Positions 299 through 55,660 of a stretch of 63,180 nucleotides of DNA are shown piece by piece (position 1 is the stretch's first letter; each line of letters opens with the position of its first letter). Below the pieces are notes generated by a model. The model was not told the origin of the DNA, did not search any database, and saw nothing but the letters and a program-made list of their open reading frames with translations. Source of the DNA: a virus (lineage: Duplodnaviria > Caudoviricetes); IMG/VR virus record IMGVR_UViG_3300025645_000071, positions 1 to 63,180 of that record; one strand, given 5' to 3'. A program made the position numbers and the translations under genes.

Positions 299-477
299 TT
301 TGCTTGGTTTTCTAAGGTTTCTAATTGAAGACACAATCTGTCTAGAGTTGCCTCTGCATGACGTATACTTAGTTGTTGCTTCTTGATTTCATCTTTAGTG
401 CGGGCTATTAGGCCTGCTCGGTTTGTCTTCCACTCACGGAAATCTCGTTCTGATTGAGTTAAACTAATGTTATCCAT
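295..477 (-). CDS. Small coiled-coil early protein
   Basis: 60 aa with a heptad-like pattern; upstream AAAACCAATTCAA-ATG. Confidence 0.7.
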   Translation of the reverse strand: MDNISLTQSERDFREWKTNRAGLIARTKDEIKKQQLSIRHAEATLDRLCLQLETLENQAK

Positions 478-559
478 TTGAATTGGTTTTTAATTTGCGC
501 TAATGTATAAGGTTTTATTTCTATATCCTAATTTGGTTCCGACTTTCTCGGTATTAAGT

Positions 560-611
560 AGTATATGTATTATATATCTCTCAATTACATTGAGATATAT
601 AATACTATACT
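560..611. promoter_or_regulatory. AT-rich bulged hairpin element H1
   Basis: GTATTATATATCTC (567-580) pairs with GAGATATATAATAC (592-605). Core TCAAT-TAC-ATTGA; outer arms AGTATA/TATACT. Confidence 0.7.
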
Positions 612-973
612 TCTAAAGGTTCAGCCTTCAACCTCTCCTCCTTGCTACGTAGGTACGCTTGCTCTGGAGTTTCCCCATCTCTAATTTCTAAAGAAATCGC
701 ACACCTCCGTGCTTTGTAGCTTGGTTCGACTTCACTCTTCAGATACGTAGTACATATGTTGGTACGTGCTTGCCTATGCTCCATTCTTTGGTTGCTATTC
801 AACCCTAGCCTAACCTTACGTGCAAGGTTCCTACCACTGAAATCTTTTACCTCCTCTAAAGAGGAAATGTGAACAGTCATCTCTTTAATTAAGCGCATAG
901 CTATCCGCTTGTTTTTTGTAGTCGGTTGCTGTTTAGCTAATCGTACAGCTGAACGTATGTCTGTGAATTTCAT
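605..973 (-). CDS. Basic early protein, N-terminal domain paralogous to 1127..1393
   Basis: Probable start MKFTDI at 973 (upstream ACCCAAACAG). 35-residue ungapped similarity to the neighbouring gene. Confidence 0.7.
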   Translation of the reverse strand: MKFTDIRSAVRLAKQQPTTKNKRIAMRLIKEMTVHISSLEEVKDFSGRNLARKVRLGLNSNQRMEHRQARTNICTTYLKSEVEPSYKARRCAISLEIRDGETPEQAYLRSKEERLKAEPLEV

Positions 974-1126
974 CTGTTTGGGTATGAGTATGCTGTGAAT
1001 AGAATAGAGACTGAGATGATGGCAATGAAGCACCAAGCTATGTATGTAACCATGTGAACTGATTTGATTTGTTACTGACTACCCCCTTAGGGGTAGTTTC
1101 GTCCACTCAGGACTCATCAGAGCAAC

Positions 1127-1393
1127 TTACTTACTTAGCGTAGCTAAGTGTTCAAGCAGTTGTGCTTTGGTCATCTTCGACAACCCCTTAACAGGAGTAG
1201 CTTTTGACTTGGCTTTGGAAGTCTTCGACTTCGCTTTCTTAGGCACAACCACCTTCAAGGCTTCAACCTCAGCAGTCAGTTCCTTTAGGAACTTCAAGGC
1301 AATAGCTTTCTTTTGCTTCGTGCAGTTGTACATAGCTTTGTTTACTGCTGACTTCGTCTCAGCAAGGACAGATTTTGATGTAGATTTTGACAT
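1127..1393 (-). CDS. Lys/Ala-rich early protein with C-terminal Rho_N/HeH-like motif (putative nucleic-acid binding)
   Basis: Histone-like KKAKSKTSKAKSKA stretch and LSKMTKAQLLEHL tail. First gene of the minus-strand block. Confidence 0.7.
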   Translation of the reverse strand: MSKSTSKSVLAETKSAVNKAMYNCTKQKKAIALKFLKELTAEVEALKVVVPKKAKSKTSKAKSKATPVKGLSKMTKAQLLEHLATLSK

Positions 1394-1436
1394 CTGAAAT
1401 TGGTTTTGAATGAGAGGGGATTTGCATATTTAAGTT

Positions 1437-1493
1437 GTTGTATGTATTAAATATATCTCTCAGTAAGAACTGAGATATATTTAATACTACAAC
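1437..1493. promoter_or_regulatory. AT-rich bulged hairpin element H2
   Basis: GTATTAAATATATCTC (1444-1459) pairs with GAGATATATTTAATAC (1472-1487). Core TCAGT-AAGA-ACTGA; outer arms GTTGTA/TACAAC. Confidence 0.7.
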
Positions 1494-1499
1494 TACTAA

Positions 1500-2090
1500 G
1501 GGTTCAGTGCAGGGTCAGTGCAGAGTAGTAGTATACTACTCTATATAGGAGGGGAGGAGTTGTCCCCCAAGCCTATTAGACTACCTTCGGTAACCCAAAA
1601 CTAAACGCATATACACACACATAAAGCTGCGCATGAGGTCGGTGCGGACAAATGCCTAGTCGTCAGTGAGTTAGCAAAAGCTGAAAAGTATGCGCAAATG
1701 CGTGAATGCACTGCGTATACGTTGATGCGAGTGCGTTTCGGTGTGCGTCAGCTAGCGTCTACATGTATATATAATCCCCAAGCTCTATATTTCTCAAAAA
1801 AATTTTCACCAATTTTTTCTACAGGCGCTATTTTCGCCGTTTTTTACTCTTATGCGGCGGTTGCCAAATTCTTTAGGATCAGAATTGTGACTACCTAATC
1901 CTTATATTATCAATCCATTACAAATCATCACTTGAAGTAATTATTTACGATTGTTTTTAAGTTTTTTATGGGTTAACTTTGCTCAAGTTTACTAAACGAA
2001 TAGCTTTTGTAACTGTTTATGATGGTTTTAGTGTATTAGTTAATTTGTTTTTGTATGGGTTGATCAAGCCCAAGCTATATCCATCACTAA
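1500..2090. other. Non-coding strand-switch region, candidate genome end/pac or origin
   Basis: Divergence point of the early and late blocks. Repeated TGCG, then A/T tracts; no credible ORF. Confidence 0.45.
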
Positions 2091-6320: not shown

Positions 6321-6572
6321 ATGACTACATACGTAATACTAAATACAACAGAGGTAAAGGATGAAGATGGTGAAGTCCTTATAGATTTTTCTCAGCTATC
6401 TAACCGTAATGCTGATATGTTACGCTACAGTAAAGACGGTAGTAAAGCCTTAGTTAAGTACAAGGGAGATCAACCATCGTTTTTAGATGGTAAGACAACG
6501 TATACACACGCAGAGATAATGGTTGTGTTAAGAGATACTGACGGAGATTGGCACGCAGAGGCTGAAGACTAA
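6321..6572 (+). CDS. Small phage protein following the LamG fibre gene
   Basis: IDFSQL...LRYSKDGSKALVKY...PSFL pattern; position after the fibre gene. Confidence 0.7.
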   Translation: MTTYVILNTTEVKDEDGEVLIDFSQLSNRNADMLRYSKDGSKALVKYKGDQPSFLDGKTTYTHAEIMVVLRDTDGDWHAEAED

Positions 6573-6991
6573 CCTTCTAAATCTTTATAAAACCGTTGAA
6601 CAAAAAGCCTAGCTTTTTGAGTTAAAGCATATCTCACTCTGTAATTATATTTAGTTTCATCTCTAAATAAATGGTCTTCATATGTGTCTGAAGGTGTTAA
6701 TTTATCAAAGTGTTTATATATGTATCCAATTTTCATTAATGGGTACACATATCTTTTTCCCATATTAGATCGGCTTGATTCAAAGTCTTTGCTAGCGTAA
6801 TCTAAAGTAAAAAATTGCAGGTCGTATGCCCATAGCATAAACTCTATTTTAGAAAAATCCATTTCTAGTTTTTCCGAATACTTATTTTTTAAAACTTTTA
6901 AGTTTTTAAGATAGTTGTTATTAATATATATCTTATCTTGTTTAGCGAAGTCTCTAAATAAGATTTTTTTTGATATCTTACTTTTAGGCAT
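6569..6991 (-). CDS. Putative winged-helix DNA-binding protein
   Basis: IEFMLWAY..FT..., PLMKIGYI, RYALTQKA resemble a MarR-like wHTH. Lone minus-strand gene in the late block. Confidence 0.6.
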   Translation of the reverse strand: MPKSKISKKILFRDFAKQDKIYINNNYLKNLKVLKNKYSEKLEMDFSKIEFMLWAYDLQFFTLDYASKDFESSRSNMGKRYVYPLMKIGYIYKHFDKLTPSDTYEDHLFRDETKYNYRVRYALTQKARLFVQRFYKDLEG

Positions 6992-7020: not shown

Positions 7021-7323
7021 ATGACAAAAGATTTCGAATTCTTACTTCATATGCAAAGACTTATGTTTGAAGCAGAAGCTTTGGCAAAGCAATATGACGT
7101 AGAAGATAGATTTATTTCAATTATGTTTGCTGGATTAATTGACCCTTTACATGGTAATATATCAAAACTTAATGCAATGTATAGTTATAACATACAAGAT
7201 GTTGATGAATTAATGGAGATACAAGATTTTATATTTCATACATACAATGTTGACGAAAAAGATGAATTAGACAATAGAGATCTAGGTAATTTACTAGATG
7301 GAACAGGAATAGAACTAGAATAA
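7021..7323 (+). CDS. Hypothetical acidic protein
   Basis: 100 aa ORF preceded by TAAATTTG (6998-7005). Confidence 0.7.
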   Translation: MTKDFEFLLHMQRLMFEAEALAKQYDVEDRFISIMFAGLIDPLHGNISKLNAMYSYNIQDVDELMEIQDFIFHTYNVDEKDELDNRDLGNLLDGTGIELE

Positions 7324-9995: not shown

Positions 9996-10201
9996 TGGCT
10001 GATTTTAAATGTGAGTGTAACAATAAGGTTGTAAGTAAATCTTCAGTTACGATAAGATACATTGAAGGTTACGGAGTGATACCTGATGTAAAATGTGAAA
10101 GTTGCGGAGAATATATGACTTCAATTACAAAAGAAAGAAATTACACAAAAGATGGAGTTGCTTCTCTTGGTAGGATGAATAGGAACGGTAGCAGCTATTG
10201 A
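9995..10201 (+). CDS. Zinc-ribbon protein
   Basis: CEC...CESCG. Confidence 0.65.
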   Translation: MADFKCECNNKVVSKSSVTIRYIEGYGVIPDVKCESCGEYMTSITKERNYTKDGVASLGRMNRNGSSY

Positions 10202-12321
10202 TGTCTGTATTACTAAACATAAAAGAATATGAAGAACCTGCTGTTAAGATTTGTCCCAACGGTACGGAAGGTGAGCTTATCGAACTCGGTGGGTTACTCA
10301 TTTGTCTTCCGAAAAGGCCGCCGAAGAAAGAAATTTTCGGATATAAAGAATCAGACTCTATGCAAATGTGGAGAAGGTTATCTATGCCGACGGAATTGTC
10401 TCGTATTCGTTCTATGGATGAGTGGGCAGAAATGCCAAGGGAGTTTAGAGAGAGGTTTCGTCCATATGTCGAGGAAGAGTTTAGGCGTAGGCGTGAGGGT
10501 TTTTGGTTTTATAACAACGGTGCAGCTACATATATTACGGGGAGGCATTACATGATGCTACAATGGACTAAGCTAGATATTGGCTATCCATATTATTTAA
10601 ATTTTCAACGTGAAATATTTTTACACATGGCTGCTTGTGAGGCTGACCCTCGTTGTATCGGTCAGCTTTACACTAAGTGTCGTCGCTCTGGGTATACCAA
10701 TATATGCTCTGCCGTACTTGTTGATGAGGCTACACAAGTTAAAGACAAGCTTATGGGGATACAGTCTAAGACTGGTAAGGATGCACAAGAAAACATATTT
10801 ATGAAAAAGGTTGTTTTTATGTTTAGGAACTACCCTTTCTTCTTTAAACCTATTCAAGATGGTACAACTAACCCACGTATGGAGTTAGCATTTAGAGAGC
10901 CATCAAAGCGTATTACCAAGAAAAACAAAACAGCTCAAACTGGTGAAGCGCTTAATACAGTGATTAATTGGAAAAACACAACTAATAATGCATATGATGG
11001 TGAGAAGCTGCACATATTATATTTAGACGAAGCAGGAAAATGGGAAAAACCAACAGACATAAGAGACGCTTGGAGGATACAGAGGACCTGTTTGATCGTC
11101 GGAAGAAAAATCGTGGGAAAGGCTCTAGTGGGAAGCACAGTAAACCCTATGTCAAAAGGCGGAAAAGAATACAAGAGTTTATGGGAGGATTCGAATCCTT
11201 CGGAGAGGAACAAGAATGGGAGGACTAAAACTGGGTTATACAGATTGTTTATATCAGCAGAGCAGTCTCTTGAAGGCTTCTTTGATTTATATGGGAATCC
11301 AGTTTCTGAAGATCCAGAAAATCCTATAGAAGGTATAGATGGTGAAGATATAGTTATTGGCTCTAGAACATACCTTAAGAATGAACGATCTTCTCTAAAA
11401 GATAATGCTTCTGAAATGAATGAGGTTATACGTCAATTTCCTTTTACTTCAGACGAAGCATTTAGAGACAGTATAGAAGGAAGCGTATTTAATATTGGAA
11501 AGATATACGAACAAATAGAATATAACGATGAGCTTTTTCCAAACCCTGTAGTTACTGGTAACTTTATATGGAAAGGAGGTAATCAAGATACCGAGGTTGT
11601 GTTTAGTCCAGATCCAAACGGCAGATTTAAAATATCCTGGATGCCACCTGTAGATTTAAGAAACAAAAAAGCAGCTATAAGAGGCAAAAAAATAGCCCCT
11701 AACTCTCATATGGGTTGCGGAGGAGTTGACTCTTATGATCTTGATGCTACTGTAGACGGCAGAGGCTCTAAAGGAGCATTACATTTATATAATAAATTTC
11801 ACATGGAGCACCCTTCTAATATGTTTGTATTAGAATATGCCTCTCGCCCTCCTCTTGCAAAAATATTTTATGAAGACGTACTTATGGCTGCTGTGTTTTA
11901 TGGGTATCCTATCTTAATTGAGAACAATAAGTACGGCATCGCAAGATACTTTGAATCAAGGGGTTACGACGGATACCTAATGGACAGACCTAAACACTTA
12001 AAAACTGGTACGGCTAAAGTTAAAGTAAAAACAAAAGGGATCCCTTCAAACTCTCAAGATATAATTCAAGCTCATGCTCACGCTATAGAGTCTTACATAC
12101 ACGAACATGTTGGGGTAAATCATGAGGCCAATAAAGTTGGTAATATGTATTTTAATAAAACTCTTGAAGATTGGATAGGTTACAAAATTGATAATAGAAC
12201 TAAGTTTGACCTTACTATTAGTTCTGGTTTAGCTTTACTTGCTGCTCAAAAGGTTAAAAAGAAAAAAGTTAGCAGCTTTGATGAAAGGAAGTTTTTTAGG
12301 CGATACAAAGTCGTCGGCTAA
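10198..12321 (+). CDS. terL: Terminase large subunit
   Basis: Walker A-like KCRRSGYT, Walker B LYLDEAGKW, VGST coupling motif, RNase H-fold GGVDSYD...IENNK...FDLTISSG. Confidence 0.92.
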   Translation: MMSVLLNIKEYEEPAVKICPNGTEGELIELGGLLICLPKRPPKKEIFGYKESDSMQMWRRLSMPTELSRIRSMDEWAEMPREFRERFRPYVEEEFRRRREGFWFYNNGAATYITGRHYMMLQWTKLDIGYPYYLNFQREIFLHMAACEADPRCIGQLYTKCRRSGYTNICSAVLVDEATQVKDKLMGIQSKTGKDAQENIFMKKVVFMFRNYPFFFKPIQDGTTNPRMELAFREPSKRITKKNKTAQTGEALNTVINWKNTTNNAYDGEKLHILYLDEAGKWEKPTDIRDAWRIQRTCLIVGRKIVGKALVGSTVNPMSKGGKEYKSLWEDSNPSERNKNGRTKTGLYRLFISAEQSLEGFFDLYGNPVSEDPENPIEGIDGEDIVIGSRTYLKNERSSLKDNASEMNEVIRQFPFTSDEAFRDSIEGSVFNIGKIYEQIEYNDELFPNPVVTGNFIWKGGNQDTEVVFSPDPNGRFKISWMPPVDLRNKKAAIRGKKIAPNSHMGCGGVDSYDLDATVDGRGSKGALHLYNKFHMEHPSNMFVLEYASRPPLAKIFYEDVLMAAVFYGYPILIENNKYGIARYFESRGYDGYLMDRPKHLKTGTAKVKVKTKGIPSNSQDIIQAHAHAIESYIHEHVGVNHEANKVGNMYFNKTLEDWIGYKIDNRTKFDLTISSGLALLAAQKVKKKKVSSFDERKFFRRYKVVG

Positions 12322-12354: not shown

Positions 12355-14784
12355 ATGAAACAATATAGCGGTAAAAAAAATTTCCCAGACCCACTTGCTC
12401 CCCAAGAACAGAAGGAGAGTAAAGAATATGGTCTAAGATATGCTAAGGCTATCGAGTCTCAGTGGGGGAAAAAGTCTGAAAACTCATCTTTATTTTCAAA
12501 AAGATATACGCTGTTTGAAAGAAACAAGGAGTACGCTAATGGCGTTCAAGATACTTCAATCTATAAAAGATTATTAAACGTACAAGACCCTAATGCAGGG
12601 GATGGTAGTTTAATGAATATTGACTATACTCCTGTTCCTATACTACCTAAGTTTGTTAGAATTGTAGTAAATAAAATATTAGGGAGAAATCTTTATCCAA
12701 ATTTAGAAGCAATCGATCCTTTGTCTTCTTCAGAAAAAAATAGGGATAAAAAAAGAATTGAGATTCAGGTTGCTTTAAGGAAGCAGCTAATGGCTTTTAA
12801 AGAAAAAACAGGCGCAACTATTGGTATGGATCCAGAAATGATTCCAGATAGCGAAGCTGAAGCAGAAATATTTATTGGAGAGAATGTAAAAAGCGATGCT
12901 GAAATAGCAGCTCAAGTTGCTACTGATATGACATTGTCTTGGAATAATTTTGACGATAATATATTTAGAAGGTGTGTAAACGATTTAGCTACAAATGGAA
13001 TGGCTGTAGTTAAAAGATCAAATGATCCTAATTACGGAATTAAAACTCATTATGTAGAACCTAAAGATTTTATTCATAGCGAAACTAATGATCCAAGTTT
13101 TGAGGATATAACCTACGGAGGGCATATTAAGAGTATGCCTATTCAGGAATTAAAAAGAATAGCTAGTGGGGAGTTAGAAGAAGAAGATTTTGAAAAAATA
13201 GCTAAGAAAACTTCTGGTAGATCATCTAATGGTCGCACTTATGATAACAATTTAGGGAAAAACGTATATGACTACGATGAGTATTCAGTTGATGTACTAG
13301 AATTTGAATTCTTGTCTACTGACTGCATGCATTTTGAGGAGAAGGAGAATAGATTCGGCAATAGAAACTTTTTCTATGAAGGCTTCGATTATAAAGAAAA
13401 GGCTGGTAGTGTTTTTGAGAGAAAGCCACATAAAATGGAGATTGTAAATGTTTACAAAGGCTATTACATTGTAGGCACAGATTATTTGTTTGGATACGGT
13501 AGAATGCATAATGTGCCTAAAAACATATACGATATAAGTAAAGCAAGACTTTCGTATTCTGTTGTTGCAACAAACCTTACCGATATGATGCCAAAATCTA
13601 TGGTTAATAGCTGTATAGGTTTTGCTGACATGTTACAATTAACCCACTTAAAAATCCAACAAGCTATTGCTAAGGCAAAGCCAGATGGACTTATCATTGA
13701 TATTGAAGGGTTAGAAAATGTTCAGCTTGGAAAATCAGGTGAATTGCAACCATTAGATTTGCACGATATATATGAGCAAACTGGTGTATTCTATTACAGA
13801 AGTAAAAATCCTGAAGGTGGATTCCAAAACCCGCCAATTCGTGAGATAGGTAATAGCATTAGAAATATTAATGAGCTTATTGGCCTGTACAATCATTATC
13901 TAAGAATGATACGTGATACTACGGGAATTAATGAAGTTGTTGATGCTAGCACGCCAAAATCAGAAGCTTTAGTAGGAGTGAGAGAGCAAGCTATTGCGGC
14001 ATCTAATAACGCAACTTATGATGTAACAAACGCATCTATGATTCTTTACAAGAATGTTTGTAATGATATAGTTAAGTGCATGCAAATACTACCAGAAGAA
14101 TCTGTTATTATGGATGTGTATAAAAATGCAATTGGCGAAACAAACATGAGTGTTCTTTCTAGTTTTGCTAGATTACCTATGTATAATTTTGGAGTTCAGG
14201 TTCAAAGAGATATGGATGATAAAGACCAGGCTTATTTAGAGCAGGCCATTCAAATTTCTCTTCAACAAAAAGAAATAGATCTTGAAGATGCTATGGCTAT
14301 TCGAGAGCTTAAGGATGTAAACCAGGCTGAAAGACTTCTTATAGTTAGAAGAAAAAAGAAGATGCAGCAAGCTCAGGCGATGATGATGCAACAACAGCAA
14401 ATGCAAGCTCAGATGGCGCAGCAGGCTAAAGCTACTGAACTCCAGATGGAAGGTCAGAAGATGCAAGCTGAAGCTCAAATAGAAGCTCAGAAAATGCAAC
14501 TTAAAGCACAAATAGACGCACAACTATCTTCAATGAGGCATGAGTTTAATAAAGAAATTGAAACTATAAGAGCTAAGGCTACTTTAGGATTCAAAGAAAC
14601 TGATGAAGAATTTAAAGAAAAACTTGAAGTCCTTAAAGAAGACAGAAAGGATGATAGAGTAGAAAAACAAGCTGTACAACAATCTAAACTTATTTCTCAA
14701 AGGAAAGGAAATAGAACTGAATTACAGCAAGGTGGTGAAAATCCAATGAGACAAATGTTAATGAATATGCAAAATGGCCAGTAA
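12355..14784 (+). CDS. Portal protein
   Basis: Follows terL. PVPILPKFVRIVVN, IQQAIAKAKPDGLIID, IRDTTGINE; Gln-rich coiled-coil C-terminus. Confidence 0.88.
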   Translation: MKQYSGKKNFPDPLAPQEQKESKEYGLRYAKAIESQWGKKSENSSLFSKRYTLFERNKEYANGVQDTSIYKRLLNVQDPNAGDGSLMNIDYTPVPILPKFVRIVVNKILGRNLYPNLEAIDPLSSSEKNRDKKRIEIQVALRKQLMAFKEKTGATIGMDPEMIPDSEAEAEIFIGENVKSDAEIAAQVATDMTLSWNNFDDNIFRRCVNDLATNGMAVVKRSNDPNYGIKTHYVEPKDFIHSETNDPSFEDITYGGHIKSMPIQELKRIASGELEEEDFEKIAKKTSGRSSNGRTYDNNLGKNVYDYDEYSVDVLEFEFLSTDCMHFEEKENRFGNRNFFYEGFDYKEKAGSVFERKPHKMEIVNVYKGYYIVGTDYLFGYGRMHNVPKNIYDISKARLSYSVVATNLTDMMPKSMVNSCIGFADMLQLTHLKIQQAIAKAKPDGLIIDIEGLENVQLGKSGELQPLDLHDIYEQTGVFYYRSKNPEGGFQNPPIREIGNSIRNINELIGLYNHYLRMIRDTTGINEVVDASTPKSEALVGVREQAIAASNNATYDVTNASMILYKNVCNDIVKCMQILPEESVIMDVYKNAIGETNMSVLSSFARLPMYNFGVQVQRDMDDKDQAYLEQAIQISLQQKEIDLEDAMAIRELKDVNQAERLLIVRRKKKMQQAQAMMMQQQQMQAQMAQQAKATELQMEGQKMQAEAQIEAQKMQLKAQIDAQLSSMRHEFNKEIETIRAKATLGFKETDEEFKEKLEVLKEDRKDDRVEKQAVQQSKLISQRKGNRTELQQGGENPMRQMLMNMQNGQ

Positions 14785-15226: not shown

Positions 15227-16989
15227 TGAGCGTGAGTACAACAACTTCTCAGGGTAACACTGTAGATGTTTCAGTATCTGGCGGCAATACGGTAAGCTTA
15301 ACTCAATCATCAACCAGTATAAGTGTATCTACTCCAGCTACATCTAATATTGTTGTTACGGAAAAAGGCCCAAAAGGATTAACTGGAGCTACAGGAGCTA
15401 CAGGAGCTACAGGAGCTACAGGATCCGCAGGAGCTGCAGGGCCTACATATAGTGTTTCTTGTGTAGATGGGGATAGCTCTGACGAAGAAAAAATAAGATT
15501 AACAGGAAGCGACTCATCTACAGATGATGTTGTTATTAAGGCTGGCATTGGATTAAGTATAGCCAGAAATACTGATAAAATACTTCTTACTAATACTGTA
15601 TCAGACACTAATACTACTTATACTGCGGGAGATGGATTAAATCTTTCTGGGACTGAGTTTAGTGCTGATCTAAAATCTGATGGAGGATTAGTTATAGAGT
15701 CTGCAAAACTTGCTGTAGACTTAGCGGCCTCATCTATTACTGGAACTTTAGCTACAGGCGATGGCGGAACGGGTAGCACTTCTACCACATATTGTGCTTT
15801 AGGATCTAATGTGTCTGGAACTCTTCCTGTAGGTAATGGAGGTACGGGGGCTACAAGCCTTGCAGATAACTCTATTCTTACTGGTACTGGAACTAGCGCT
15901 ATAACAGCTGAAGCTAATTTAACATTTAGTTCTAATGTTCTTGCTATAGGAGCAGACGCAGATATAGAGCCTAAGATAACATTAACTAATGATGAGAACT
16001 CTGTAGAAATAGGTATAGCCAACGCTGCAGACGATATGGTAGATTTATCTACTGATGGAGATTTAGTTATTAATTCGGTTGGGAATCATAATATTATTTT
16101 TGCTAATAATGACGCACAAAGATTAACTATAGAGTCAGGGGGGGCTACTAAATTAGGAAGAGCTAATATTAACTCTTTGGTGAATTTTGGGACGATTCAA
16201 AGGTCAAATAGCGGCGCAGGTAAGGCACTAAATATTTCTGGAGGAAACCCAAAAACTGGAGAAACAGATACTAATGGAGGAGATTTAACTTTTGAAGGTG
16301 GTAAGGGAACGGGTACTGGAACAGGAGGTGATGTAGAAATTAAAACTTACCCGCCCTCTGGGAGTACTGGCACTAGCTTTAATCTTTCAGCTGAGATTTG
16401 GAAGTTTACTGATAATGGAGTGTTCCAAACACCTGGCGTTATAGAACTTGGTAACGCAAACGATACTACTATAGCTAGAGCTTCAGCTGGTAAAGTTACG
16501 ATAGAAGATAATCAAATAGTTACAGCTGGCGCTGTCAGTGTAGCTAGTGAAGCTCAAACTCCTGTAGGTATAATGGTAGCGAGGCGAACTATAACTACCG
16601 CTGAAGCCAACGCAATGAATTCAACACCTATTGAAATAGTACCAGCTCAAGGATCTAATACAGTTATCGTGCCTTTAAGCGGTATGATAAGAATTGACAG
16701 AGCCTCTACACAAAGCGCAAGTGCTGCTGATTGGAACATGCACTATGCTGATCAAGAGCCAGGCGCTTACCTTACCGCATCAATTCATCACATAAGAAGA
16801 TTTATGTACAACGAAACTGGTGATAGAATATATCACATAACACCTGGTCTTGCGTCCACAGAGGTAGGTCAAAGTTTAACTGAAGACGTTAACAAAGCTG
16901 TAGAGGTTAGCTTTGATTCAGCCACAACAACTGACTGTTTTACTAGCATAGACGTATATTTAACTTACCAAGTAATATCAATAGCATAA
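15226..16989 (+). CDS. Tail fibre protein with collagen-like segment
   Basis: GPKGLTGATGATGATGAT, YTAGDGL, LPVGNGGTGA; Gly/Thr-rich. Confidence 0.8.
   Translation: MSVSTTTSQGNTVDVSVSGGNTVSLTQSSTSISVSTPATSNIVVTEKGPKGLTGATGATGATGATGSAGAAGPTYSVSCVDGDSSDEEKIRLTGSDSSTDDVVIKAGIGLSIARNTDKILLTNTVSDTNTTYTAGDGLNLSGTEFSADLKSDGGLVIESAKLAVDLAASSITGTLATGDGGTGSTSTTYCALGSNVSGTLPVGNGGTGATSLADNSILTGTGTSAITAEANLTFSSNVLAIGADADIEPKITLTNDENSVEIGIANAADDMVDLSTDGDLVINSVGNHNIIFANNDAQRLTIESGGATKLGRANINSLVNFGTIQRSNSGAGKALNISGGNPKTGETDTNGGDLTFEGGKGTGTGTGGDVEIKTYPPSGSTGTSFNLSAEIWKFTDNGVFQTPGVIELGNANDTTIARASAGKVTIEDNQIVTAGAVSVASEAQTPVGIMVARRTITTAEANAMNSTPIEIVPAQGSNTVIVPLSGMIRIDRASTQSASAADWNMHYADQEPGAYLTASIHHIRRFMYNETGDRIYHITPGLASTEVGQSLTEDVNKAVEVSFDSATTTDCFTSIDVYLTYQVISIA
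15385..15420 (+). repeat. Tandem 9-bp repeat GGAGCTACA x4 (collagen GAT)
   Basis: Read directly from the sequence. Confidence 0.9.
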
Positions 16990-38251: not shown

Positions 38252-41200
38252 ATGGAAGAAGAAGAGATCTTACAATACATTGAAACTCAACGTAATGGCG
38301 GCATGGCTGACAATAAAATCGGTATGCAATTACAGATGAAGGGGGTATCCAATTATACGGACTACTTAAAAAAAAAAGACGATACTTCAGGATCGCCCTC
38401 TGCTTCGGACGAGGAAGATACGGAATCAACGCAGAATACACCTATTCAGGGAGGACAAGGAGCTGGTTCTTCGGTTTTACCTGTAACACAAAATGATCCC
38501 ACTGTAAACACTCTTGTTAATGGAGAGCCAGATTTATCTATTGACCCTCTTACTGGTCAGGTAATACAGCCTTGGACAGATACTCCTGCAAATAGACAAA
38601 GATTAGAAATTGATCCAGTTCATTACGATGGATTTCAAAAAGCTGGATTTATTAAAGTTATGGAGGGATTAGACCCTTCGTATATAACACCAGAAATAGA
38701 AGCATCTTTTTTTGATTTTGCATCTAACAGTGGTCAATGGTGGTGGAATTCTGTTGGCGGGAATGTTGATGCTATATCAGCAGAATTAGCAAAAAATGAT
38801 GAGTATCTTTCTACCGCAGGTATTGAGGTGTCACCTACATCAACAGAATTTGGTGCAAACCCTATGTACATGAGTAATCTTCAAGGCTCAGGAATGGTTG
38901 CATCAATGCCTTTTATACCTAACCTTCCAAAACAAAAAACTGAAGAGCAGATAGCGTTTGAAAAAACAACCGCTGTAAAAAAATATTTAACCGAACAGCT
39001 TAATAATACAGTCGTAGAGTCTCTTCAAAGTAATATGCCAGCAGATATTAGCGGGAGCGAAGAAGCCTTGCTTTATATGGAGCAGTTTATGTTAGAGAAT
39101 TATGGCTCTATGCTTGATTTAACTGGTGAAGGCCAAGTAGGAAACACCCCTTTTTTACAATTTGACGGTTTTGAACCTAGCGGTTACATTGGTGCAGGTG
39201 GTTCAGGATATAGACCTAAATTTTCAGGATATATTGTAGACAAATTTGACGCTGCAGGTATTGATGTAATAAATGGAATTTACAATATGTTTGGGGGTGA
39301 CGCAAAAACAGTCGTTGAAATGAGAGAGAAGGCTGAAGAACTACGTGCAAACACTCTTCAGTTCACAGAAAGCATGAGTGGTAGTTTTACAGACGGTCAG
39401 TTTAAGAACGGCATGATGCAAATGGGTGGTTTTGTTAGTGAAGCTGCTCCAACTATGGCAATATTAATACCAGCAGCTACAGTTACTACAGTTGCCACTG
39501 GTGGAGCAGGCGCTCCGTGGTGGGTTACTGCGGGTATAATAGGTTTAGAGGGGGCGACATTAAGCACTACTATAGAAGCAGCAAGAACTCGTGAACACCC
39601 TATGTTTAAAAGGTACACAAAAGATGGTGTTACTATAGGGCATTATGAAATGATGGAAGCTACGGGAGGTGATCCAGAGTTAATGGCTAATTATGAAGAA
39701 AGTTTTGACGACTCAGCAAGAATGGGACATCTTAGTACTGTCTTTGCAACTGACTTTGTTGCTAGTGGTGCTACATCATTGTTCTTCTTTAAAGCTTTAA
39801 AAGGAGCTGGTATGCCTACCAATGTAGGGCCTAATATGAATGGATGGTGGAATGCTCACTTAACCAACATGGGGGTGTCTGTACCAGTAAATAGTGTTAC
39901 CGCATCTACCGCAGCTATGGTGCAATACATGAGCATGAATCCAGAAGCAACTCAAGACGAAGTTTTTGAAGTTGGAATGGATGTAGCTTTAGGTGTTGTT
40001 CCAATAACCTTAGGCGCTAGTGGAACTGGTTCTGCAATTAATTATGTTAATACAAAAGCGCAAATAGTAAATGCTTTAGCTAGAGACGCAGTTGGTAGAA
40101 GCGGAGGTAATGTCAGGATAAATCAACAACGAACACAATACTTAGAGACACTTAGAAATAGCAAGGATAATAACGCTGTAATCCATGCTGAGAGAATGTT
40201 GGTTCAATTAGAAGAGCAAAAACTCAGCACAATGGCTGCTGATGAATCATTCTACTTAAGAATGAATCCAGAGGACTACGAAACTATTGTAGGTCTTCAC
40301 AGAGATTACAATTCTTTGTTGCGTCAATTAAATCAAATGGATGACCCAGATTCACCTATGGGGAAGTCTTTGAAAACACAATTAGACGGAATTAAAGAAA
40401 AGAGGCTTAATATAGAAAAATTATACGAAGTAGATGAATCTTCAATTGGAGATCCTACTATGCCCCCACCAGACATATTTGAACCTACAGTAACTGGGCC
40501 TGACGGAAAACCAACTCCATTAGCGTTTACACCTGGTTTATCTAAATGGTGGTATACTGAATTCTTTGATAAGTATGGGGATGTAAATTCACTACAAAGG
40601 TCTATTATGGAAGCCTTAGACACAGATAATACGGGTAAGAGAATTGAGCTTACTCAAGACTTTGAGGTGTTGCAAAAACTATCTACATCAAAGGCTGCTT
40701 TTCAGATTGAAGAAATGGTAAGGCTTAGGACTCAAGATGGGGGGTTAATACCTCAGTTACGAGAATTACAGAGAACCACATCTTCAGATCTGTACGAAGG
40801 GTTGCCAGATGTCTACGATAAAAACATTATAGGCCTTTATGATAGATGGGCTGTATCAAAATTTGCCCCAGAAAGAAACGCAAAAATTCTTGCTGACAAT
40901 CAAGCAGAATTAACTGCGTTAAAGTCTAAAGAAACTTTATCTTCTTCAGAGAAAAAACGAATAACATTTCTTGAAGAAAAAATTGCAGAAAGAAGAGGTA
41001 GTGGTATGGCTGACGAAGAAGCTGCCAGCTTTTTAAATTCCCTACCCGATGAACTAAAGGCTTCTTTTGAAAAAGTAAGAGAGGAGCATAGGTCGATTCA
41101 ACAAAACACTAGAGATGCTGCTTTAGAGTATGGTTTTATAGATCAGGCCATGTACGATAAACTTCAAACAACAGCTGAAAACTATGTAACCCTTACAGGT

Positions 41201-43510
41201 GATGGCATGAATTCTGTTGATGGAAATCTAACGTTAATTGATAATGATATAGTTCAAGCTATATTCCCACAAAGAGCTTCACAGGGTGGAGTGCCTGATA
41301 GCTATAGAAAAGCTTCTGGTCGTAGTGATGAGACTGGTAGTATATTAGGAAAAACTATAGATCAAAACACACAGGTACACGTAGCAGGACAAAAAAACGT
41401 AGCTCTTAAAGGGTTATATGAAATGTTATTAAACAATCCAAACTCTAAACACTACTCTATATCTGATGAAGGCAATTCAGCAGCTAAAAATACAGTAATG
41501 GTTTATGTAAATGGAGAAAAAAAGTTTATTACGTTTGCTAACGAAGCTTATGCAAAGCCTTTTAAAACTCAAGCTCCTAGCGATAACGAATCATATGTTA
41601 GGATTGTTCAACCTATGCAAAGATTATTTAGTAATGTACCTAAAATGTACACGCAATGGTCTACTACATTCTGGGCAGGTAATAGTGTAAGAGATTATCA
41701 ATCTTCTATAACAAACGCAATAAGCGCAGCAGAACAACAGTTTGGATATGCTTTAAATAACGCTGAAGGTCAACCCATAAATATAAAGCAGTTAGTTTCA
41801 GACTCTCACCTTTTGGGTAAAGGCGAGTACATACGTGCTTTTAAAGCCATCGCTAATGATGAGTTTGGTCCAGGCGGTGATATGCGAGGCCCAGAAAACG
41901 TGCTATACCAAGAGTATAAAGCTCATGGAGGAAAGACTGGATGGGCTTATAGAACGCCTTTACAAGATTTGTCTAAGCAATTGGCAGGCGAGATAGACGA
42001 TGGAATAAGAGGGCAAAAAGCTACACAATGGATGTATGACAATAGCTTAGGTCTTATTGAGTCTTTTAATAATACGTTTGAGAACGTCTTTAGATTTCAA
42101 GTATATAAAGGTTTAAGAAATCAAGGGGTTGCCCCAGACTATGCCGCAGCTGTAGCAAAAGACGTAAGTATAGACTTTAATAGATCGGGTAATACTACAC
42201 CGATGTTAAGCTCTATGAAGTTCTTTTTAAATGCTGGATTGCAAGGCGCTGACATGACCGTAAAGACTTCTACTGCATTAAAACCTAAAGTAGATGTTGA
42301 AGGAAATGTAAGAAACCCTATACAAAGATTAACGAACGCTCAGAAACTCCTAGGAGGAGCTGTTGGTTTTAGTTATATGTTGACTAATTTCAATCAATCT
42401 GTATCAGAAACAGATACGGACGGGGTTACTTTTTACGACAAGATTCCTGATCAAATAAAACAAAGAAATCATATAATGATGATTCCTGGCAGTCCTACAG
42501 GAGAAAAAGTTCTTATCCCTAAGGCTTATGGGTTTGGGGCGTTCAATGACTTAGGCGTTATGTTTGCTGAGGTTCAAAGCGGAGAAAGAGATCCTGCAGA
42601 CGCAGCTTTATATTGGGGCTCTTCTGCTATAACTAACATGTCCCCAGTACATTTTGGAACCGTAGGGGGTTCAGACGATCCGACAAAGTCTGTTAATCCA
42701 GTATCAACACCAGGCGAAATTGTTAGAGAGATTATTACTCCAGACCCTCTAGCCCCAATCATTGACGTTGCTACCAATGTAGATGGTTTTGGGAATACTA
42801 TAGCTGCAGAAGAAAAACCTGGAGTGGCTAGATCTTCTCAGGGGTATGATTCCCCAATTATTTTTGAACAGATTGCTCAGATTTTAAATTCAGCTACTGG
42901 TAGTGATGAGATAAGTGGACCTTTAGATTTTAACCCAGACCAATTAAACTATTTAATGCAAAGCTATTTAGGAAGTTCTTATACGATGTTTGGTGACGCA
43001 TCTGAAGGCATCTTGCAGGTGACTGCTGGGCAGGATCACGTAGACACATGGCCTATGATAAAGAAGTTTTATTCTGAAGATTTTGAATATTCAGCTTATG
43101 GAAAGTATTACGATAGCAAACAAGTTGTAAATTCATACTTAGCAGAATTTGGCAACGTAGAGGACCTTCTTGAAAATAAAGACAAACCTCTACCTAGTCG
43201 TGATGAAAGACTTGCTGATTATGCAGCTACAGAAACGGAGCCAGGAGGTGCTGCAACAAGGTATGGACATGCTTTAGGTATGGCTGAATTATTTTCAGAT
43301 ATTGAAACAGACATGAGAGAGATTACTGAAGCTAAAAAAATATTGCAAGAAAAACAAAGCGATCTAGGTTATCACATGTTTAACCTTGAGGTGGCAGACG
43401 AATGGGGAGGATTAGAAGATAAAATCTACAAACTAGAGCAAGCTGAAATGCTATTAATGGAAAAAGTTCTAAAAGAATATTATAAATTTTACAGAAAACC
43501 TGAAGAATAA
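38252..43510 (+). CDS. Giant ejection/internal virion protein with LPD38-like C-terminal region
   Basis: AKDVSIDFNRSG...FFLNAGLQG...YDKIPDQIK..N...IPKAYGF...N.DGFGNTI; hydrophobic segments in the N-terminal third. Confidence 0.7.
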   Translation: MEEEEILQYIETQRNGGMADNKIGMQLQMKGVSNYTDYLKKKDDTSGSPSASDEEDTESTQNTPIQGGQGAGSSVLPVTQNDPTVNTLVNGEPDLSIDPLTGQVIQPWTDTPANRQRLEIDPVHYDGFQKAGFIKVMEGLDPSYITPEIEASFFDFASNSGQWWWNSVGGNVDAISAELAKNDEYLSTAGIEVSPTSTEFGANPMYMSNLQGSGMVASMPFIPNLPKQKTEEQIAFEKTTAVKKYLTEQLNNTVVESLQSNMPADISGSEEALLYMEQFMLENYGSMLDLTGEGQVGNTPFLQFDGFEPSGYIGAGGSGYRPKFSGYIVDKFDAAGIDVINGIYNMFGGDAKTVVEMREKAEELRANTLQFTESMSGSFTDGQFKNGMMQMGGFVSEAAPTMAILIPAATVTTVATGGAGAPWWVTAGIIGLEGATLSTTIEAARTREHPMFKRYTKDGVTIGHYEMMEATGGDPELMANYEESFDDSARMGHLSTVFATDFVASGATSLFFFKALKGAGMPTNVGPNMNGWWNAHLTNMGVSVPVNSVTASTAAMVQYMSMNPEATQDEVFEVGMDVALGVVPITLGASGTGSAINYVNTKAQIVNALARDAVGRSGGNVRINQQRTQYLETLRNSKDNNAVIHAERMLVQLEEQKLSTMAADESFYLRMNPEDYETIVGLHRDYNSLLRQLNQMDDPDSPMGKSLKTQLDGIKEKRLNIEKLYEVDESSIGDPTMPPPDIFEPTVTGPDGKPTPLAFTPGLSKWWYTEFFDKYGDVNSLQRSIMEALDTDNTGKRIELTQDFEVLQKLSTSKAAFQIEEMVRLRTQDGGLIPQLRELQRTTSSDLYEGLPDVYDKNIIGLYDRWAVSKFAPERNAKILADNQAELTALKSKETLSSSEKKRITFLEEKIAERRGSGMADEEAASFLNSLPDELKASFEKVREEHRSIQQNTRDAALEYGFIDQAMYDKLQTTAENYVTLTGDGMNSVDGNLTLIDNDIVQAIFPQRASQGGVPDSYRKASGRSDETGSILGKTIDQNTQVHVAGQKNVALKGLYEMLLNNPNSKHYSISDEGNSAAKNTVMVYVNGEKKFITFANEAYAKPFKTQAPSDNESYVRIVQPMQRLFSNVPKMYTQWSTTFWAGNSVRDYQSSITNAISAAEQQFGYALNNAEGQPINIKQLVSDSHLLGKGEYIRAFKAIANDEFGPGGDMRGPENVLYQEYKAHGGKTGWAYRTPLQDLSKQLAGEIDDGIRGQKATQWMYDNSLGLIESFNNTFENVFRFQVYKGLRNQGVAPDYAAAVAKDVSIDFNRSGNTTPMLSSMKFFLNAGLQGADMTVKTSTALKPKVDVEGNVRNPIQRLTNAQKLLGGAVGFSYMLTNFNQSVSETDTDGVTFYDKIPDQIKQRNHIMMIPGSPTGEKVLIPKAYGFGAFNDLGVMFAEVQSGERDPADAALYWGSSAITNMSPVHFGTVGGSDDPTKSVNPVSTPGEIVREIITPDPLAPIIDVATNVDGFGNTIAAEEKPGVARSSQGYDSPIIFEQIAQILNSATGSDEISGPLDFNPDQLNYLMQSYLGSSYTMFGDASEGILQVTAGQDHVDTWPMIKKFYSEDFEYSAYGKYYDSKQVVNSYLAEFGNVEDLLENKDKPLPSRDERLADYAATETEPGGAATRYGHALGMAELFSDIETDMREITEAKKILQEKQSDLGYHMFNLEVADEWGGLEDKIYKLEQAEMLLMEKVLKEYYKFYRKPEE

Positions 43511-50495: not shown

Positions 50496-51365
50496 TTAAT
50501 TTAAATAGTTTATTAAGACCGTGTGACGAGATGAATGCTTGATTCGCTTCAAAGCACGTTCACGTATTTGTCTCACTCTCTCTGATGATAAATCAAATAT
50601 CTCTGATATCTCTGTATTAGATTTAGGGTGATCTCCGTCAAGGCCAAACGACAGCCTTAAAGTAGCGCTTTCTCTTGGGGTCAACCATCTTAGGCAAGAT
50701 TCTATTTCATGTCTTAAGCTTTCATTTAGCAGCTCTTTGTCAGGATCTAACGCATACTTGTCGGGCATAAGATCACCTACTCTGTTTGAACCAGCTTCAT
50801 CCTGAGATACAGGCATATCTAAACTTACATGTTTATTGGAATTTTTAAGAATTAATCTAACATCTGCTACATTCATGTTTAACTCTGCAGCAATTTCAGA
50901 CTCTGTAGGTGGTCGTTCATACTTTTGCTCAAGCCTTGAGTAAGACTGCTTGATTTTTATTAAGGCCCCTATTTTGTTTTGCGGCAACCTTACCATCCTA
51001 GAGTGGTCGGACAATGCAGATAATATATTTTGTCTAATCCACCACACAGCATACGAGATAAATTTAAAGCCACGGGTTTCGTCGAATCTTTTGGCTGCAC
51101 GTATCAGACCTAAATTACCTTCGCTAATAAGATCTGGAAGGCTTAATCCTTGATTTTGATACTGTTTAGCTACAGATACAACGAATCTTAAATTTGCTCT
51201 TGTCAGTCTATGTAGAGCTTGTTGATCGCCATCTCTAATTTTTCTCGCTAACTCTACTTCTTCCTTAACTGTAATTAATTCTTCTTTAGTAACGTCAGAT
51301 AAATATCTGTCTAGACTTGGCTGTGACCTGTCTGTTATTTGCTTTGTTATTTTAAGCTGTCTCAT
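50496..51365 (-). CDS. rpoD: RNA polymerase sigma-70 factor, Bacteroidota primary-sigma-like
   Basis: MRQLKITKQ, ANLRFVVSVAKQY, DLISEGNLGL, FDETRGFKFISYAVWWIRQ, ERVRQI. Confidence 0.93.
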   Translation of the reverse strand: MRQLKITKQITDRSQPSLDRYLSDVTKEELITVKEEVELARKIRDGDQQALHRLTRANLRFVVSVAKQYQNQGLSLPDLISEGNLGLIRAAKRFDETRGFKFISYAVWWIRQNILSALSDHSRMVRLPQNKIGALIKIKQSYSRLEQKYERPPTESEIAAELNMNVADVRLILKNSNKHVSLDMPVSQDEAGSNRVGDLMPDKYALDPDKELLNESLRHEIESCLRWLTPRESATLRLSFGLDGDHPKSNTEISEIFDLSSERVRQIRERALKRIKHSSRHTVLINYLN

Positions 51366-51750
51366 TCTTATTTTCTCTTTCTAATTTTCTCATTAATCTT
51401 TCTTTGGTCTGCACAAGTGTAGTTATTCTATTATCAATAGACTCTACTTGACTTTTTAATAAATAATCTTGTAATACGTCATCGACTACATCTTTTGCAA
51501 TTCTGTATATATCTGAATAACCACTCCAATAATCCATGTTTTGAAAATGCTTGCCAGTATAATAACTAACCGTTGATCTATCTCGACCTATAGCACAGCC
51601 AATTTCTTCTGTATTGCAATATGGAGTAAGTGCTACACCAGTAGCTGCTCTAACTTGAACATGAAACTTTATTCTAGATTTACTACGGGTAATTCCTAAG
51701 GTTTCGTATACCTCTGTTACAGCTTGCGTTATCGCTTTTATTCTTTTCAT
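51352..51750 (-). CDS. DnaA C-terminal-like HTH protein
   Basis: SR....VQVR...EEIGCAIGRDRSTVSY resembles the DnaA domain IV IG..F.RDHSTV motif. Confidence 0.65.
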   Translation of the reverse strand: MKRIKAITQAVTEVYETLGITRSKSRIKFHVQVRAATGVALTPYCNTEEIGCAIGRDRSTVSYYTGKHFQNMDYWSGYSDIYRIAKDVVDDVLQDYLLKSQVESIDNRITTLVQTKERLMRKLERENKNETA

Positions 51751-51778
51751 TTTATTTAATTTTTATTTTTTATAGTTT

Positions 51779-51823
51779 GTTACATAATATATCTTCATAA
51801 AATGAAGAGATATATTATATAAC
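51779..51823. promoter_or_regulatory. AT-rich bulged hairpin element H5
   Basis: ATAATATATCT (51784-51794) pairs with AGATATATTAT (51808-51818). Core TTCAT-AAA-ATGAA. Confidence 0.6.
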
Positions 51824-52336
51824 TAACCTATCATTTGTATCTGGATGGATGTAAGACTCTTTATATTTTATTATCTCGTAACTTTTTAATTGACGTAAGT
51901 CGTTTAATACGAGCGTAGTTATTTTGTCTTTTCTACCTTTCCGTTGATATATTTTTTTATATGCGTCTTTCTTATATAAGACGTATTCATTGAAGTCTAC
52001 GTTGCCTAAGCACCAATCTAAAAGTTCTTTTCTTTCAACACGTACAAAGCCACCGAGCTCGCAAATCTCAAATGCTATCCATTTTGCTTTACCTAAAAGC
52101 CATCCTAAATCACCATGTACATTTCTAAACTCAACCCATATTTCATCAGGCAGGTTGTTGCCTTTTACATCTACACCGTCAGATCCGTGCCAAAAGTCTA
52201 CGTGAAGTTCTATGTCTTCTTCACGAGAGGACTTTCTTATATCATTAAAAATCCTTACGTATCTAGTAGCAGATACTCCACCGTCTTTCCAAGATTGTTT
52301 GCGTCTTTCGTTAAAAAGGTTGTTGGTCGTGATCAT
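51815..52336 (-). CDS. PD-(D/E)XK-like nuclease
   Basis: EDIELHVDF...VDVKG...IWVEFRNV.G..GWL.G.A..IAF. Confidence 0.6.
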   Translation of the reverse strand: MITTNNLFNERRKQSWKDGGVSATRYVRIFNDIRKSSREEDIELHVDFWHGSDGVDVKGNNLPDEIWVEFRNVHGDLGWLLGKAKWIAFEICELGGFVRVERKELLDWCLGNVDFNEYVLYKKDAYKKIYQRKGRKDKITTLVLNDLRQLKSYEIIKYKESYIHPDTNDRLVI

Positions 52337-52538
52337 ATTCTTTTGAGATTTCTTTAATTAGATCTAATTCTGTATTTACCCAAACTCTAAAGTCCTTTAT
52401 ATTACTCATTACATCTTCAATCTCAGTAAGAACATCTTCACCATCTTCACTATAAAGGCTTTCATGCAACGTACTTGTTGCGTGGTGAATTCTTTCACAT
52501 GCCTCCATATAAAAAATGCTTGCTTCTTTTTTAGTCAT
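52311..52538 (-). CDS. Hypothetical protein
   Basis: 75 aa, coupled to neighbours. Confidence 0.65.
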   Translation of the reverse strand: MTKKEASIFYMEACERIHHATSTLHESLYSEDGEDVLTEIEDVMSNIKDFRVWVNTELDLIKEISKEYDHDQQPF

Positions 52539-52983: not shown

Positions 52984-53003
52984 GAGGTAAAGTTACTCCA
53001 TAA

Positions 53004-54812: not shown

Positions 54813-55065
54813 TGTCTAATGCAATCATTAAAAGTATAAGATATCCAGCCAGATCCATAACGGTATCTTCTGTTTCTCCATGTACTCCTACGTTTTTTAT
54901 TCTATTTAATTTATCGTCTATCCTAGCTTTAAGAGCTTCTATTCTATCTAAACGAGAGAATATACCTCCAGGTTGTAATGCACTATTACCGTAAGCAGAG
55001 TTTTTGTTTAAAAGCAATTCTTTAATCTCGTCACTTTTTTCTATTATACTGGCTCTTATGTTCAT
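54694..55065 (-). CDS. DUF1599/MazG-like nucleotide-modification-associated protein
   Basis: KNSAYGNS...RIDDKLNRI...EDTVMDLAGY. Confidence 0.75.
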   Translation of the reverse strand: MNIRASIIEKSDEIKELLLNKNSAYGNSALQPGGIFSRLDRIEALKARIDDKLNRIKNVGVHGETEDTVMDLAGYLILLMIALDNESNNLPEHKGHEESTSHNDTHSASTYTGGKVRVTYSED

Positions 55066-55297: not shown

Positions 55298-55304
55298 AGG
55301 CCTC

Positions 55305-55607: not shown

Positions 55608-55660
55608 TATTAAAATAATTTATAAATTATATTGAAAGCAAACTATTTGCTTTTACAACC

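Follow-up and report, generated by a model that had tools for sequence, protein, structure and literature searches.

A conserved family of long AT-rich hairpin cassettes between the minus-strand genes of a Bacteroidota-type phage genome

Results

The window analysed here is the whole of IMG/VR record IMGVR_UViG_3300025645_000071 (63,180 bases; Caudoviricetes), a phage genome that is rated 100% complete and whose first 150 bases recur at its end. Its genes fall into two arms, with plus-strand genes at about 2.1-50.5 kb and minus-strand genes running from 50.5 kb to the end and on into positions 1-1393; a divergent control region of about 600 nt lies between them. The minus arm holds many small orphan reading frames (ORFans), a primase-helicase, a PDDEXK nuclease and a GP88-like protein, and at its far end a 132-amino-acid (132-aa) DNA-binding-type protein and a sigma-70-family factor. 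Five long AT-rich hairpin cassettes, H1 to H5, occupy intergenic gaps of this arm (Table 1). Each lies between two genes of the same strand except H2, which is the arm's first element and stands ahead of its first gene, and the preceding stop codon is found at, or just ahead of, the base of the hairpin stem.

Table 1. Positions of the hairpin cassettes and of other features of the window.
Feature	Position	Strand	Remarks
H1 cassette	554-621	-	Scanner core 560-611; flank CTAAAGGTT at 613-621; start at 477 lies 82 nt on
H2 cassette	1429-1504	-	Core 1433-1497; flank CTAAGGGTT at 1496-1504; start at 1393 lies 39 nt on
H3 cassette	62359-62433	-	Core 62363-62426; flank 62425-62433; start at 62347 lies 15 nt on
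H4 cassette	59295-59346	-	GP88-like gene (start 59278) lies 16 nt on
H5 cassette	51772-51831	-	132-aa DnaA-domain-IV-like gene lies 21 nt on; sense strand retains G.U pairs
Type I hammerhead ribozyme with upstream RAGATH-1 hairpin	1072-1150	-	Gap between the arm's first and second genes
tRNA-like element	~58568-58658	-	T arm and 7-bp acceptor stem; intergenic gap, same arm
132-aa protein	51352-51750	-	DnaA domain IV-like DNA-binding fold and long C-terminal helix
Sigma-70-family factor (phage)	50496-51365	-	Regions 1.2, 2, 3 and 4
Conserved divergent control region	1505-2090		About 600 nt, between the two arms
TAnnTTTG motifs	2130, 3555, 5175, 6998, 12327, 18419, 23737, 25966, 34709, 38225	+	Mostly TATATTTG; near plus-arm starts
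Terminase	10198-12321		Plus arm
Portal	12355-14784		Plus arm
1752-aa polyvalent-type protein	38252-43510	+	LPD38 domain; adjoins 1924-aa virion protein

These hairpins form a family of real, conserved cis elements. An inverted-repeat search placed all five among the longest and strongest local inverted repeats of the window, with perfect or near-perfect arms (H4, 20 nt at 100%; H5, 20 nt at 90%; H3 and H2, 16 nt at 100% each; H1, 14 nt at 100%). A bulge-tolerant scanner scored them at 19-23.5, and the next seven hairpins in the 63 kb reached only 11-12. When the 14.2-kb arm was shuffled 200 times with its dinucleotides preserved, the best score averaged 11.2 with a maximum of 18.0, and a hairpin scoring at least 15 arose in 7 of the 200 shuffles. 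Their sequence words are likewise more frequent than chance predicts. The box GTATTAWATAT, allowing one mismatch, occurs 23 times against 8.3 expected, a count reached by 0 of 100 shuffles, and its eight exact matches are both arms of H1 to H4. The word CTAARGGTT occurs five times against 1.4 expected (1 of 100 shuffles reached five), with three of the occurrences adjoining H1, H2 and H3.

The family had been described in an earlier note made from the sequence alone, and all five members were recovered at the positions it gave, clear of background in both the scanner and the shuffles. Its description of a TCA...TGA core, a 2-3 nt offset and a single extra base in H1 and H2 is correct, as are the additional TA on both arms of H3 relative to H4 and the CTAA(A/G)GGTT word beside H1, H2 and H3, a motif that we found to be over-represented. 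The placement it reported, about 15-85 nt upstream of a start codon, agrees with measured distances of 15, 16, 21, 39 and 82 nt, and the hairpins do lack terminator form, no T-run following them on either strand. The stems are AT-rich, as claimed, but the reported length of 11-19 bp was too short; the count is 22-28 pairs once the outer AGAG...CTCT base is included. Its proposal of selection on symmetry or structure gains from relatives in which pairing is retained while the sequence differs.

We gathered these relatives through the GP88-like protein and the primase, by whole-record fetches and by two pattern scans. Among complete records, G000, G001, G009 and G010 carry five hairpins each and G003 carries four; the partial records G002, G004 and G005 carry four each. 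The earlier note had held that absence from related phages would tell against the family, and nine related records were found to carry the elements, at four to five each; in records with a mapped gene order, they occupy the same arm and stand at the front of gene blocks. Among the matches listed in the second pattern scan of viral contigs, at least 11 hairpin sites in at least nine loci passed a hairpin filter. Four loci (L176, L178, L187 and L267) were scanned further, and L197, a low-scoring repeat-like site, was not counted as a member. The matches listed in loose pattern scans of viral contigs were mostly chance AT-rich sequence. The resulting set comprises 40 unique hairpin sequences. A small hairpin of a different kind, CCGA-GAAAG-TCGG, sits in the interval from H1 to the following start codon (477-560, minus strand) and is kept in G001, G002 and G010.

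The distribution of the family is bounded. No hairpins are present in G006 and G008, sister records that are complete or nearly so and whose primases are 77% and 52% identical, respectively. The early arm of G006 (L286/L287) carries a GC-rich palindrome of 15-17 nt, with 6-7 bp arms and a 3-nt centre, in three gaps preceding successive genes, which may be the counterpart of the long hairpins. A specific hairpin pattern matched nothing in 185,579 bacterial species genomes, and no prophage or host copy was identified. Maribacter phage Panino, whose primase is the closest among cultured phages (34% identity), shows no such hairpin in its first 40 kb, and a megablast of the arm against deposited phages gave no match. 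Rfam called no family at gathering score anywhere in the window; at E values up to 1 on the H1-H4 stretches, it returned only the hammerhead region described below and one match to a snoRNA model (E = 1) in a coding stretch. We found no paper describing promoter hairpins in Cellulophaga phages; no wider search for prior descriptions was made.

All members follow a common plan on the strand that carries the gene sense. The 5' side often opens with (A/G)ACC (26 of 40) and TTAG (32 of 40), followed by AGAG, a mismatch or bulge, and 4-5 pairs. The stem continues through one extra base or a 1x1 mismatch to a GTA(A/T)TA-type box and 10-14 A-T-rich pairs, and the top consists of a 2-3 nt bulge on either arm, 3-7 pairs and a loop of 3-4 nt. 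The 3' side is the mirror image, closing with CTCT-TAA (CTTAA in 23 of 40). Interiors vary widely by type, being built on (TA)n-CTCTC, AAAGAAGATGATTC, AAGAAGAAGAAAGACTC or TATACACTCTC. Predicted pairs number 21-28 in 38 of the 40 unique hairpins, the same range being given for the whole set, the stems are about 85% A-T, and three irregularities recur: the mismatch or bulge after AGAG, the extra base outside the GTA(A/T)TA box, and the 2-3 nt bulge 5-7 pairs below the loop.

Pairing is conserved as sequence changes. We aligned nine type-A copies and wrote their structure by hand; 96.5% of the cells form standard pairs, 6 of the 25 pairs show changes in both partners, and covariation scores 0.231 compared with 0.070 in shuffles, none of 500 of which reached the observed value. 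Sliding the partners by 1-3 columns lowers pairing to 30-63%. RNAalifold returned no structure from a plain MAFFT alignment of 18 copies, in which the copies are out of register. When the 5' arms of the 40 unique hairpins are compared with reverse-complemented 3' arms, identity is 86.5% within a hairpin and 65% between hairpins. Orthologues with near-identical lower stems differ in complementary top stems (CAAT/ATTG versus CATA/TATG), as in H1 of G000 and G001 and in H2 of G000 compared with G001 and L187.

Two features distinguish the strands. A G-N-A loop centre (GTA or GAA) is present in 26 of the 40 hairpins on the gene-sense strand and in 0 of 40 on the other; composition alone would give an estimated split of about 64:36, and the copies are not independent. 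Hairpins of the H5 type have G.U pairs on the sense strand, folding at -20.9 kcal/mol there and at -15.0 kcal/mol on the antisense strand, and one metagenome variant of H5 has A-U at that G.U pair.

Two further elements with RNA-like features sit in gaps of the same arm. The first is a type I hammerhead ribozyme with the core CUGAUGA...GAAA, three stems and a GUC cleavage site. In a relaxed Rfam search, it matched RF03152 (RAGATH-1-hammerhead) over its full length at 35.2 bits, against a gathering score of 56.3, and RF00163 (Hammerhead_1) at 25 bits, against 34. The hammerhead occupies the same slot in all seven hairpin-bearing arms examined, including those of G001, G002, G003, G004, G009 and G010, and its orthologues show compensatory changes in all three stems. 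Its presence in the arm would imply co-transcription and RNA cleavage within the operon. The second is a tRNA-like element conserved in G001, G002 and G010, which Rfam does not call and which ARAGORN reports only when its threshold is lowered (as Val, or as Gln with a 14-nt insert). Rfam also found nothing in the arms of the hairpin-less G006 and G008. By eye, G008 contains what resembles a hammerhead core, one stem of it bearing a large insertion (L289, ~16636-16761); this core is unconfirmed, and Rfam is silent on it at E values up to 1.

The two arms differ in their promoter motifs. In the plus arm, at least 10 start codons have TAnnTTTG within about 30 nt, and several of these motifs immediately follow a GC-rich hairpin and T-run; we take these to be canonical Bacteroidota promoters and intrinsic terminators. 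Within about 30 nt before minus-arm starts, the motif was found at 0 of 33. With no promoter motif close to its starts, the minus arm therefore looks like a single long unit that begins in the control region; otherwise, promoter function would fall to the hairpin cassettes. The control region is conserved in six records, in places above the level of the flanking genes, and contains invariant blocks. It includes a host-type TAnnTTTG for the plus arm at 1974, a partly conserved TAnnTTTG about 100 nt upstream of H2, and a short palindrome (~1525-1542) that covaries in relatives and whose half-site words are similar to those of the cassettes.

The blocks that the hairpins head are F1, hammerhead and F9; F15...F16; ORFans; the GP88-like and replication genes; and the 132-aa protein and sigma genes. 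Their order varies among G000, G001, G002, G003 and G010. In G010, other blocks contain the GP88-like and sigma genes, with hairpins at the junctions; in G002, an H3-type copy stands at the position of H4 in G000; and the region between H4 and H3 is an ORFan mosaic. An identical 70-nt H3-type copy occurs at two sites in G002 and at three in G010, and is 100% identical between records. Breakpoints do coincide with hairpins in these block maps, as had been anticipated, a correspondence read from the maps and carrying no statistics. Being near-identical over 50-70 nt, the copies would also act as crossover points shuffling the blocks, and they appear to be seams for early gene-block exchange whichever mechanism holds.

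When the window's 83 open reading frames (ORFs) were compared with six records, only the one encoding the 132-aa protein occurred in each of the four complete relatives with hairpins and in neither of the two without. A sequence profile of this protein gives weak matches to DnaA domain IV (3pvp, E 0.011; 1j1v, E 0.019). An AlphaFold model (pLDDT 92.5) ends in a 54-residue helix, and its best Foldseek matches are DnaA DNA-binding domains (E 0.008; TM 0.61-0.63 on the target). Homologues are 49% identical in G003 and 35% in G009. Searching with this protein recovered only two known records among viral contigs and 17 loci among metagenome contigs; in 9 of the 17, an H5-type hairpin stands about 25 nt before a close homologue. 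Distant homologues (35-37% identity; L314, L315 and L317) have no such hairpins within their loci. The neighbouring sigma factor was considered as a reader of the hairpins and rejected; G009 has five hairpins and no sigma-70 region 2, and the factor is thus unnecessary for them because a record without the gene carries them.

Discussion

Almost nothing is known of early gene expression in Bacteroidota phages, whose hosts use unusual promoters and no Shine-Dalgarno sites. The clade described here displays two regulatory grammars, one arm having host-type promoters and canonical terminators and the other having hairpins, a hammerhead and a tRNA-like element. We tentatively favour the view that the cassettes are RNA-level punctuation of a long polycistronic early transcript, acting as RNase III-type processing or stability signals in the manner of phage T7, although our confidence in it is limited. 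We rank it first mainly because three kinds of candidate RNA-cleavage signal share the gaps of one arm. The minus arm (50496-63180 on into 1-1393) would be transcribed as one or a few polycistronic RNAs from the control region, and each cassette would fold into an A.U-rich hairpin of 22-28 pairs with small bulges of conserved position. A host endoribonuclease specific for double strands, of the RNase III type, might then cut the hairpin, or the hairpin might simply block exonucleases. Either way, the message would be split into block-sized mRNAs with protected ends, a role that the hammerhead and the tRNA-like element would fill at other junctions. The hairpin potential, its non-randomness, its conservation with compensatory change, and the position and company of the cassettes are observed; their transcription and cleavage are inferred.

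RNase III requires roughly 20 bp (about two turns) of double-stranded RNA, a length that the stems of 22-28 pairs exceed; tolerating their bulges, they provide the helix of at least 20 bp that is typical of T7 substrates. The early region of T7 has RNase III processing sites, and Bacillus phage SP82 has Bs-RNase III sites. Like the cassettes, the T7 and SP82 sites are bulged hairpins, few in number and related to one another, that separate the genes of a single early polycistronic unit, with one ahead of the first gene and with members similar in both sequence and shape. The T7 sites consist of two short stems around a large internal loop, whereas the stems here are long, near-continuous, about 85% A-T and interrupted by bulges of 1-3 nt. 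Also unlike T7, this family has a TTAG-AGAG...CTCT-TAA base with an (A/G)ACC flank and belongs to a Bacteroidota-type host, and cleavage is here a proposal. If the cassettes are processing sites, T7-style mRNA punctuation would extend to a distant phage-host system and the hairpins would be natural substrates for a Bacteroidota RNase III.

Phage and prophage hammerheads offer a second comparison. Perreault et al. (2011) propose that hammerheads cleave long phage transcripts to yield mRNAs the length of a gene or an operon (PMC3088659). The cassettes would similarly be intercistronic RNA elements, and a genuine type I hammerhead lies in the same arm. Unlike hammerheads, the hairpins have no ribozyme core or Rfam match, and their cleavage would need a protein nuclease.

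Several observations weigh against RNA-level punctuation. Complementarity alone is no proof of selection, because template switching inside palindromes copies changes from arm to arm and could hold the arms complementary without it. Nearly all of about 1000 pairs are Watson-Crick, and G.U pairs, of which the sense strand has 8 and the antisense strand 10, are rare and unbiased; they therefore provide no RNA signal and are fewer than is usual for RNA families. The antisense fold is the more stable by a mean of 0.6 kcal/mol, and in 30 of the 40 hairpins, an advantage that comes partly from the fifth position of the hairpin base, which is irregular family-wide. Whole cassettes are identical (70 of 70 nt) between records whose flanking genes are 80-94% identical, and the basal box is lineage-specific (GTATTA, GTAATA or GTATAT) and the same within a genome; this combination looks like protein recognition or gene conversion. 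The G006 palindrome is too short for RNase III and looks operator-like, no Rfam family matches the hairpins, and a DNA-binding protein, the 132-aa one, co-occurs with them in a phyletic sample of four records against two that are not independent. On the other side, the imperfections persist at the same sites in every type, which argues for constraint, and complementarity that continues up to a 3-4 nt loop, together with irregularities fixed in position, fits a folded strand better than the operator of a dimer. The evidence on RNA versus DNA is mixed.

The account that survives best beside RNA punctuation, possible though on balance unlikely, is that the cassettes are DNA-level control sites, serving as operators or belonging to phage-specific promoters, and that a dimeric phage protein binds them, the 132-aa protein being the candidate. 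Binding, perhaps preceded by cruciform extrusion of the AT-rich centre, would turn early blocks on or off. The earlier note had suggested an operator for a helix-turn-helix dimer, and the part of this idea that has stood is that the protein in question tracks the hairpins, as the sole ORF to do so; its binding is a prediction, and the idea keeps its place as a rival. The almost purely Watson-Crick pairing and the lack of a consistently better-folding strand are what DNA sites would show, and the basal box is uniform within a genome and variable among lineages, as the candidate protein is. An H5-type hairpin before a close homologue in 9 of 17 loci is a layout typical of autoregulation, and the resemblance to DnaA domain IV extends over profile, model and Foldseek comparisons. 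The covarying palindrome of the control region with its similar half-site words, the absence of host-type promoters at minus-arm starts and the operator-like palindromes in the early gaps of G006 can be added. Set against these, known operators do not resemble a palindrome of 50-70 bp whose arms stay complementary as far as a 3-nt loop, half-sites some 40 bp apart are atypical, and the conserved bulges and strand-specific G-N-A loops go unexplained. The phyletic link has the small, non-independent sample noted above, and the loci of the distant homologues lack hairpins. The Foldseek and profile E-values are weak, and the 132-aa protein could equally act on host DnaA boxes or other host DNA. 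If the cassettes are the DNA sites of this DnaA-like protein, they would represent a new kind of phage switch.

It is improbable, in our judgement, that the cassettes are mainly recombination cassettes whose copies persist through block shuffling or gene conversion with little regulatory role. The model for this is the promoter early stem-loop (PeSL) of T4-type phages, which can drive such shuffling (PMC2839356; PMC4122927) and resembles our elements as a repeated intergenic stem-loop in a plastic early region, flanking ORFans and found at rearrangements. Within about 100 bp, a PeSL combines a stem-loop terminator with a G/C tract and, after it, an early promoter of host consensus (PMC2839356; PMC4122927). 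Unlike PeSLs, the hairpins here have AT-rich stems and usually stand 14-40 nt from a start; ORFan flanking and rearrangement are present, though without statistics, and the adjoining host-consensus promoter is absent. Recombination would account for the identical 70-nt copies at several sites in G002 and G010, the H4-H3 mosaic, and the relocation of the GP88-like and sigma genes in G010 with hairpins at the junctions. Conversely, the position-conserved bulges, the constant placement before starts, the fixed (A/G)ACC orientation (26 of 40) and the presence of four to five copies per genome argue for a role in expression, and recombination is compatible with either RNA punctuation or DNA-level control, so that it is no true alternative to them. 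The specific suggestion of attC-like sites that shuffle early genes fared less well. Rearranged blocks were indeed found, but a Pfam scan of 35 window proteins, a subset of the ORFs, detected no tyrosine recombinase. Integron attC sites also conserve structure over sequence, have extra-helical bases and mark cassette borders; unlike them, the present elements lack R/L core boxes and are situated ahead of genes in a phage operon, and no integrase was found here.

We give slightly less credence again to a more speculative idea, in which the cassettes are supercoil-sensing DNA switches. Extrusion of the cruciform would join the outer half-sites (AGAG-N-GTAGT-type) into a contiguous palindrome like that at ~1525-1542, which would be bound by the DnaA-domain-IV-like coiled-coil protein or by an unrecognised phage polymerase, starting or blocking transcription of the block, and the bulges would set the geometry of the arms.

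Hairpin promoters of the N4 kind, extruded under supercoiling and read by an unrecognised phage-borne RNA polymerase, were also among the earlier proposals, and we now regard them as decidedly improbable. The N4 promoter hairpin has inverted repeats flanking a GC-rich heptamer, a 5-7 bp stem and a 3-nt loop with a sheared G:A pair, and it is read on the template strand by an injected polymerase of 3500 aa (PMC4496689). The cassettes share with it (PMC4496689) a 3-nt loop of the G-N-A type, a mixture of conserved and free stem positions, and a location upstream of early genes. They head every early block, the first included, host-type promoters are absent at minus-arm starts, and the function of two giant virion-type proteins (1924 and 1752 aa) is unassigned. 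The other hallmarks given there are missing. The stems are AT-rich and 21-28 bp long, with no short stem or heptamer, and the G-N-A loop is on the non-template strand (26 of 40, versus 0 of 40 on the template that N4 uses; PMC4496689). Sequence searches of Pfam, PHROGs and the PDB found no RNA polymerase family in the giant proteins, which is a weak test for enzymes that can diverge strongly, and no ORF above 150 aa has a DxDGD-type motif. An Atlas search, run for the 1752-aa protein only, places that protein among LPD38 polyvalent proteins, and the phage sigma factor points to the host polymerase.

That the cassettes are transcription terminators or attenuators dividing the arm into timed units is the least credible reading, since these stable intergenic hairpins at gene ends have no T-run after them on either strand, the plus arm of the same genome uses canonical GC-stem/T-run terminators, and one hairpin precedes the first gene, where there is nothing to terminate.

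Additional features of the genome

Besides the terminase and portal genes, the plus arm encodes giant virion-type proteins and a protein with a type IX secretion sorting domain. The 1752-aa and 1924-aa proteins are probably ejected internal proteins. A Bacteroidota host is suggested by the sorting domain, by leaders that lack Shine-Dalgarno sites and by the TAnnTTTG motifs; the phage is an uncultured marine one of Flavobacteria type. The cultured phages with the most similar primases, at most 34% identical, are phages of Maribacter, Cellulophaga and Flavobacterium. Among RNA sequencing runs listed, one has a 0.05 share of words and two have none.

Within the plus arm there is also a divergent gene pair (6569-6991, minus strand; 7021-7323, plus strand), whose 140-aa protein has no family match. 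TAnnTTTG occurs on both strands of the 30-nt gap between the two genes, and the pair looks like a small regulatory switch.

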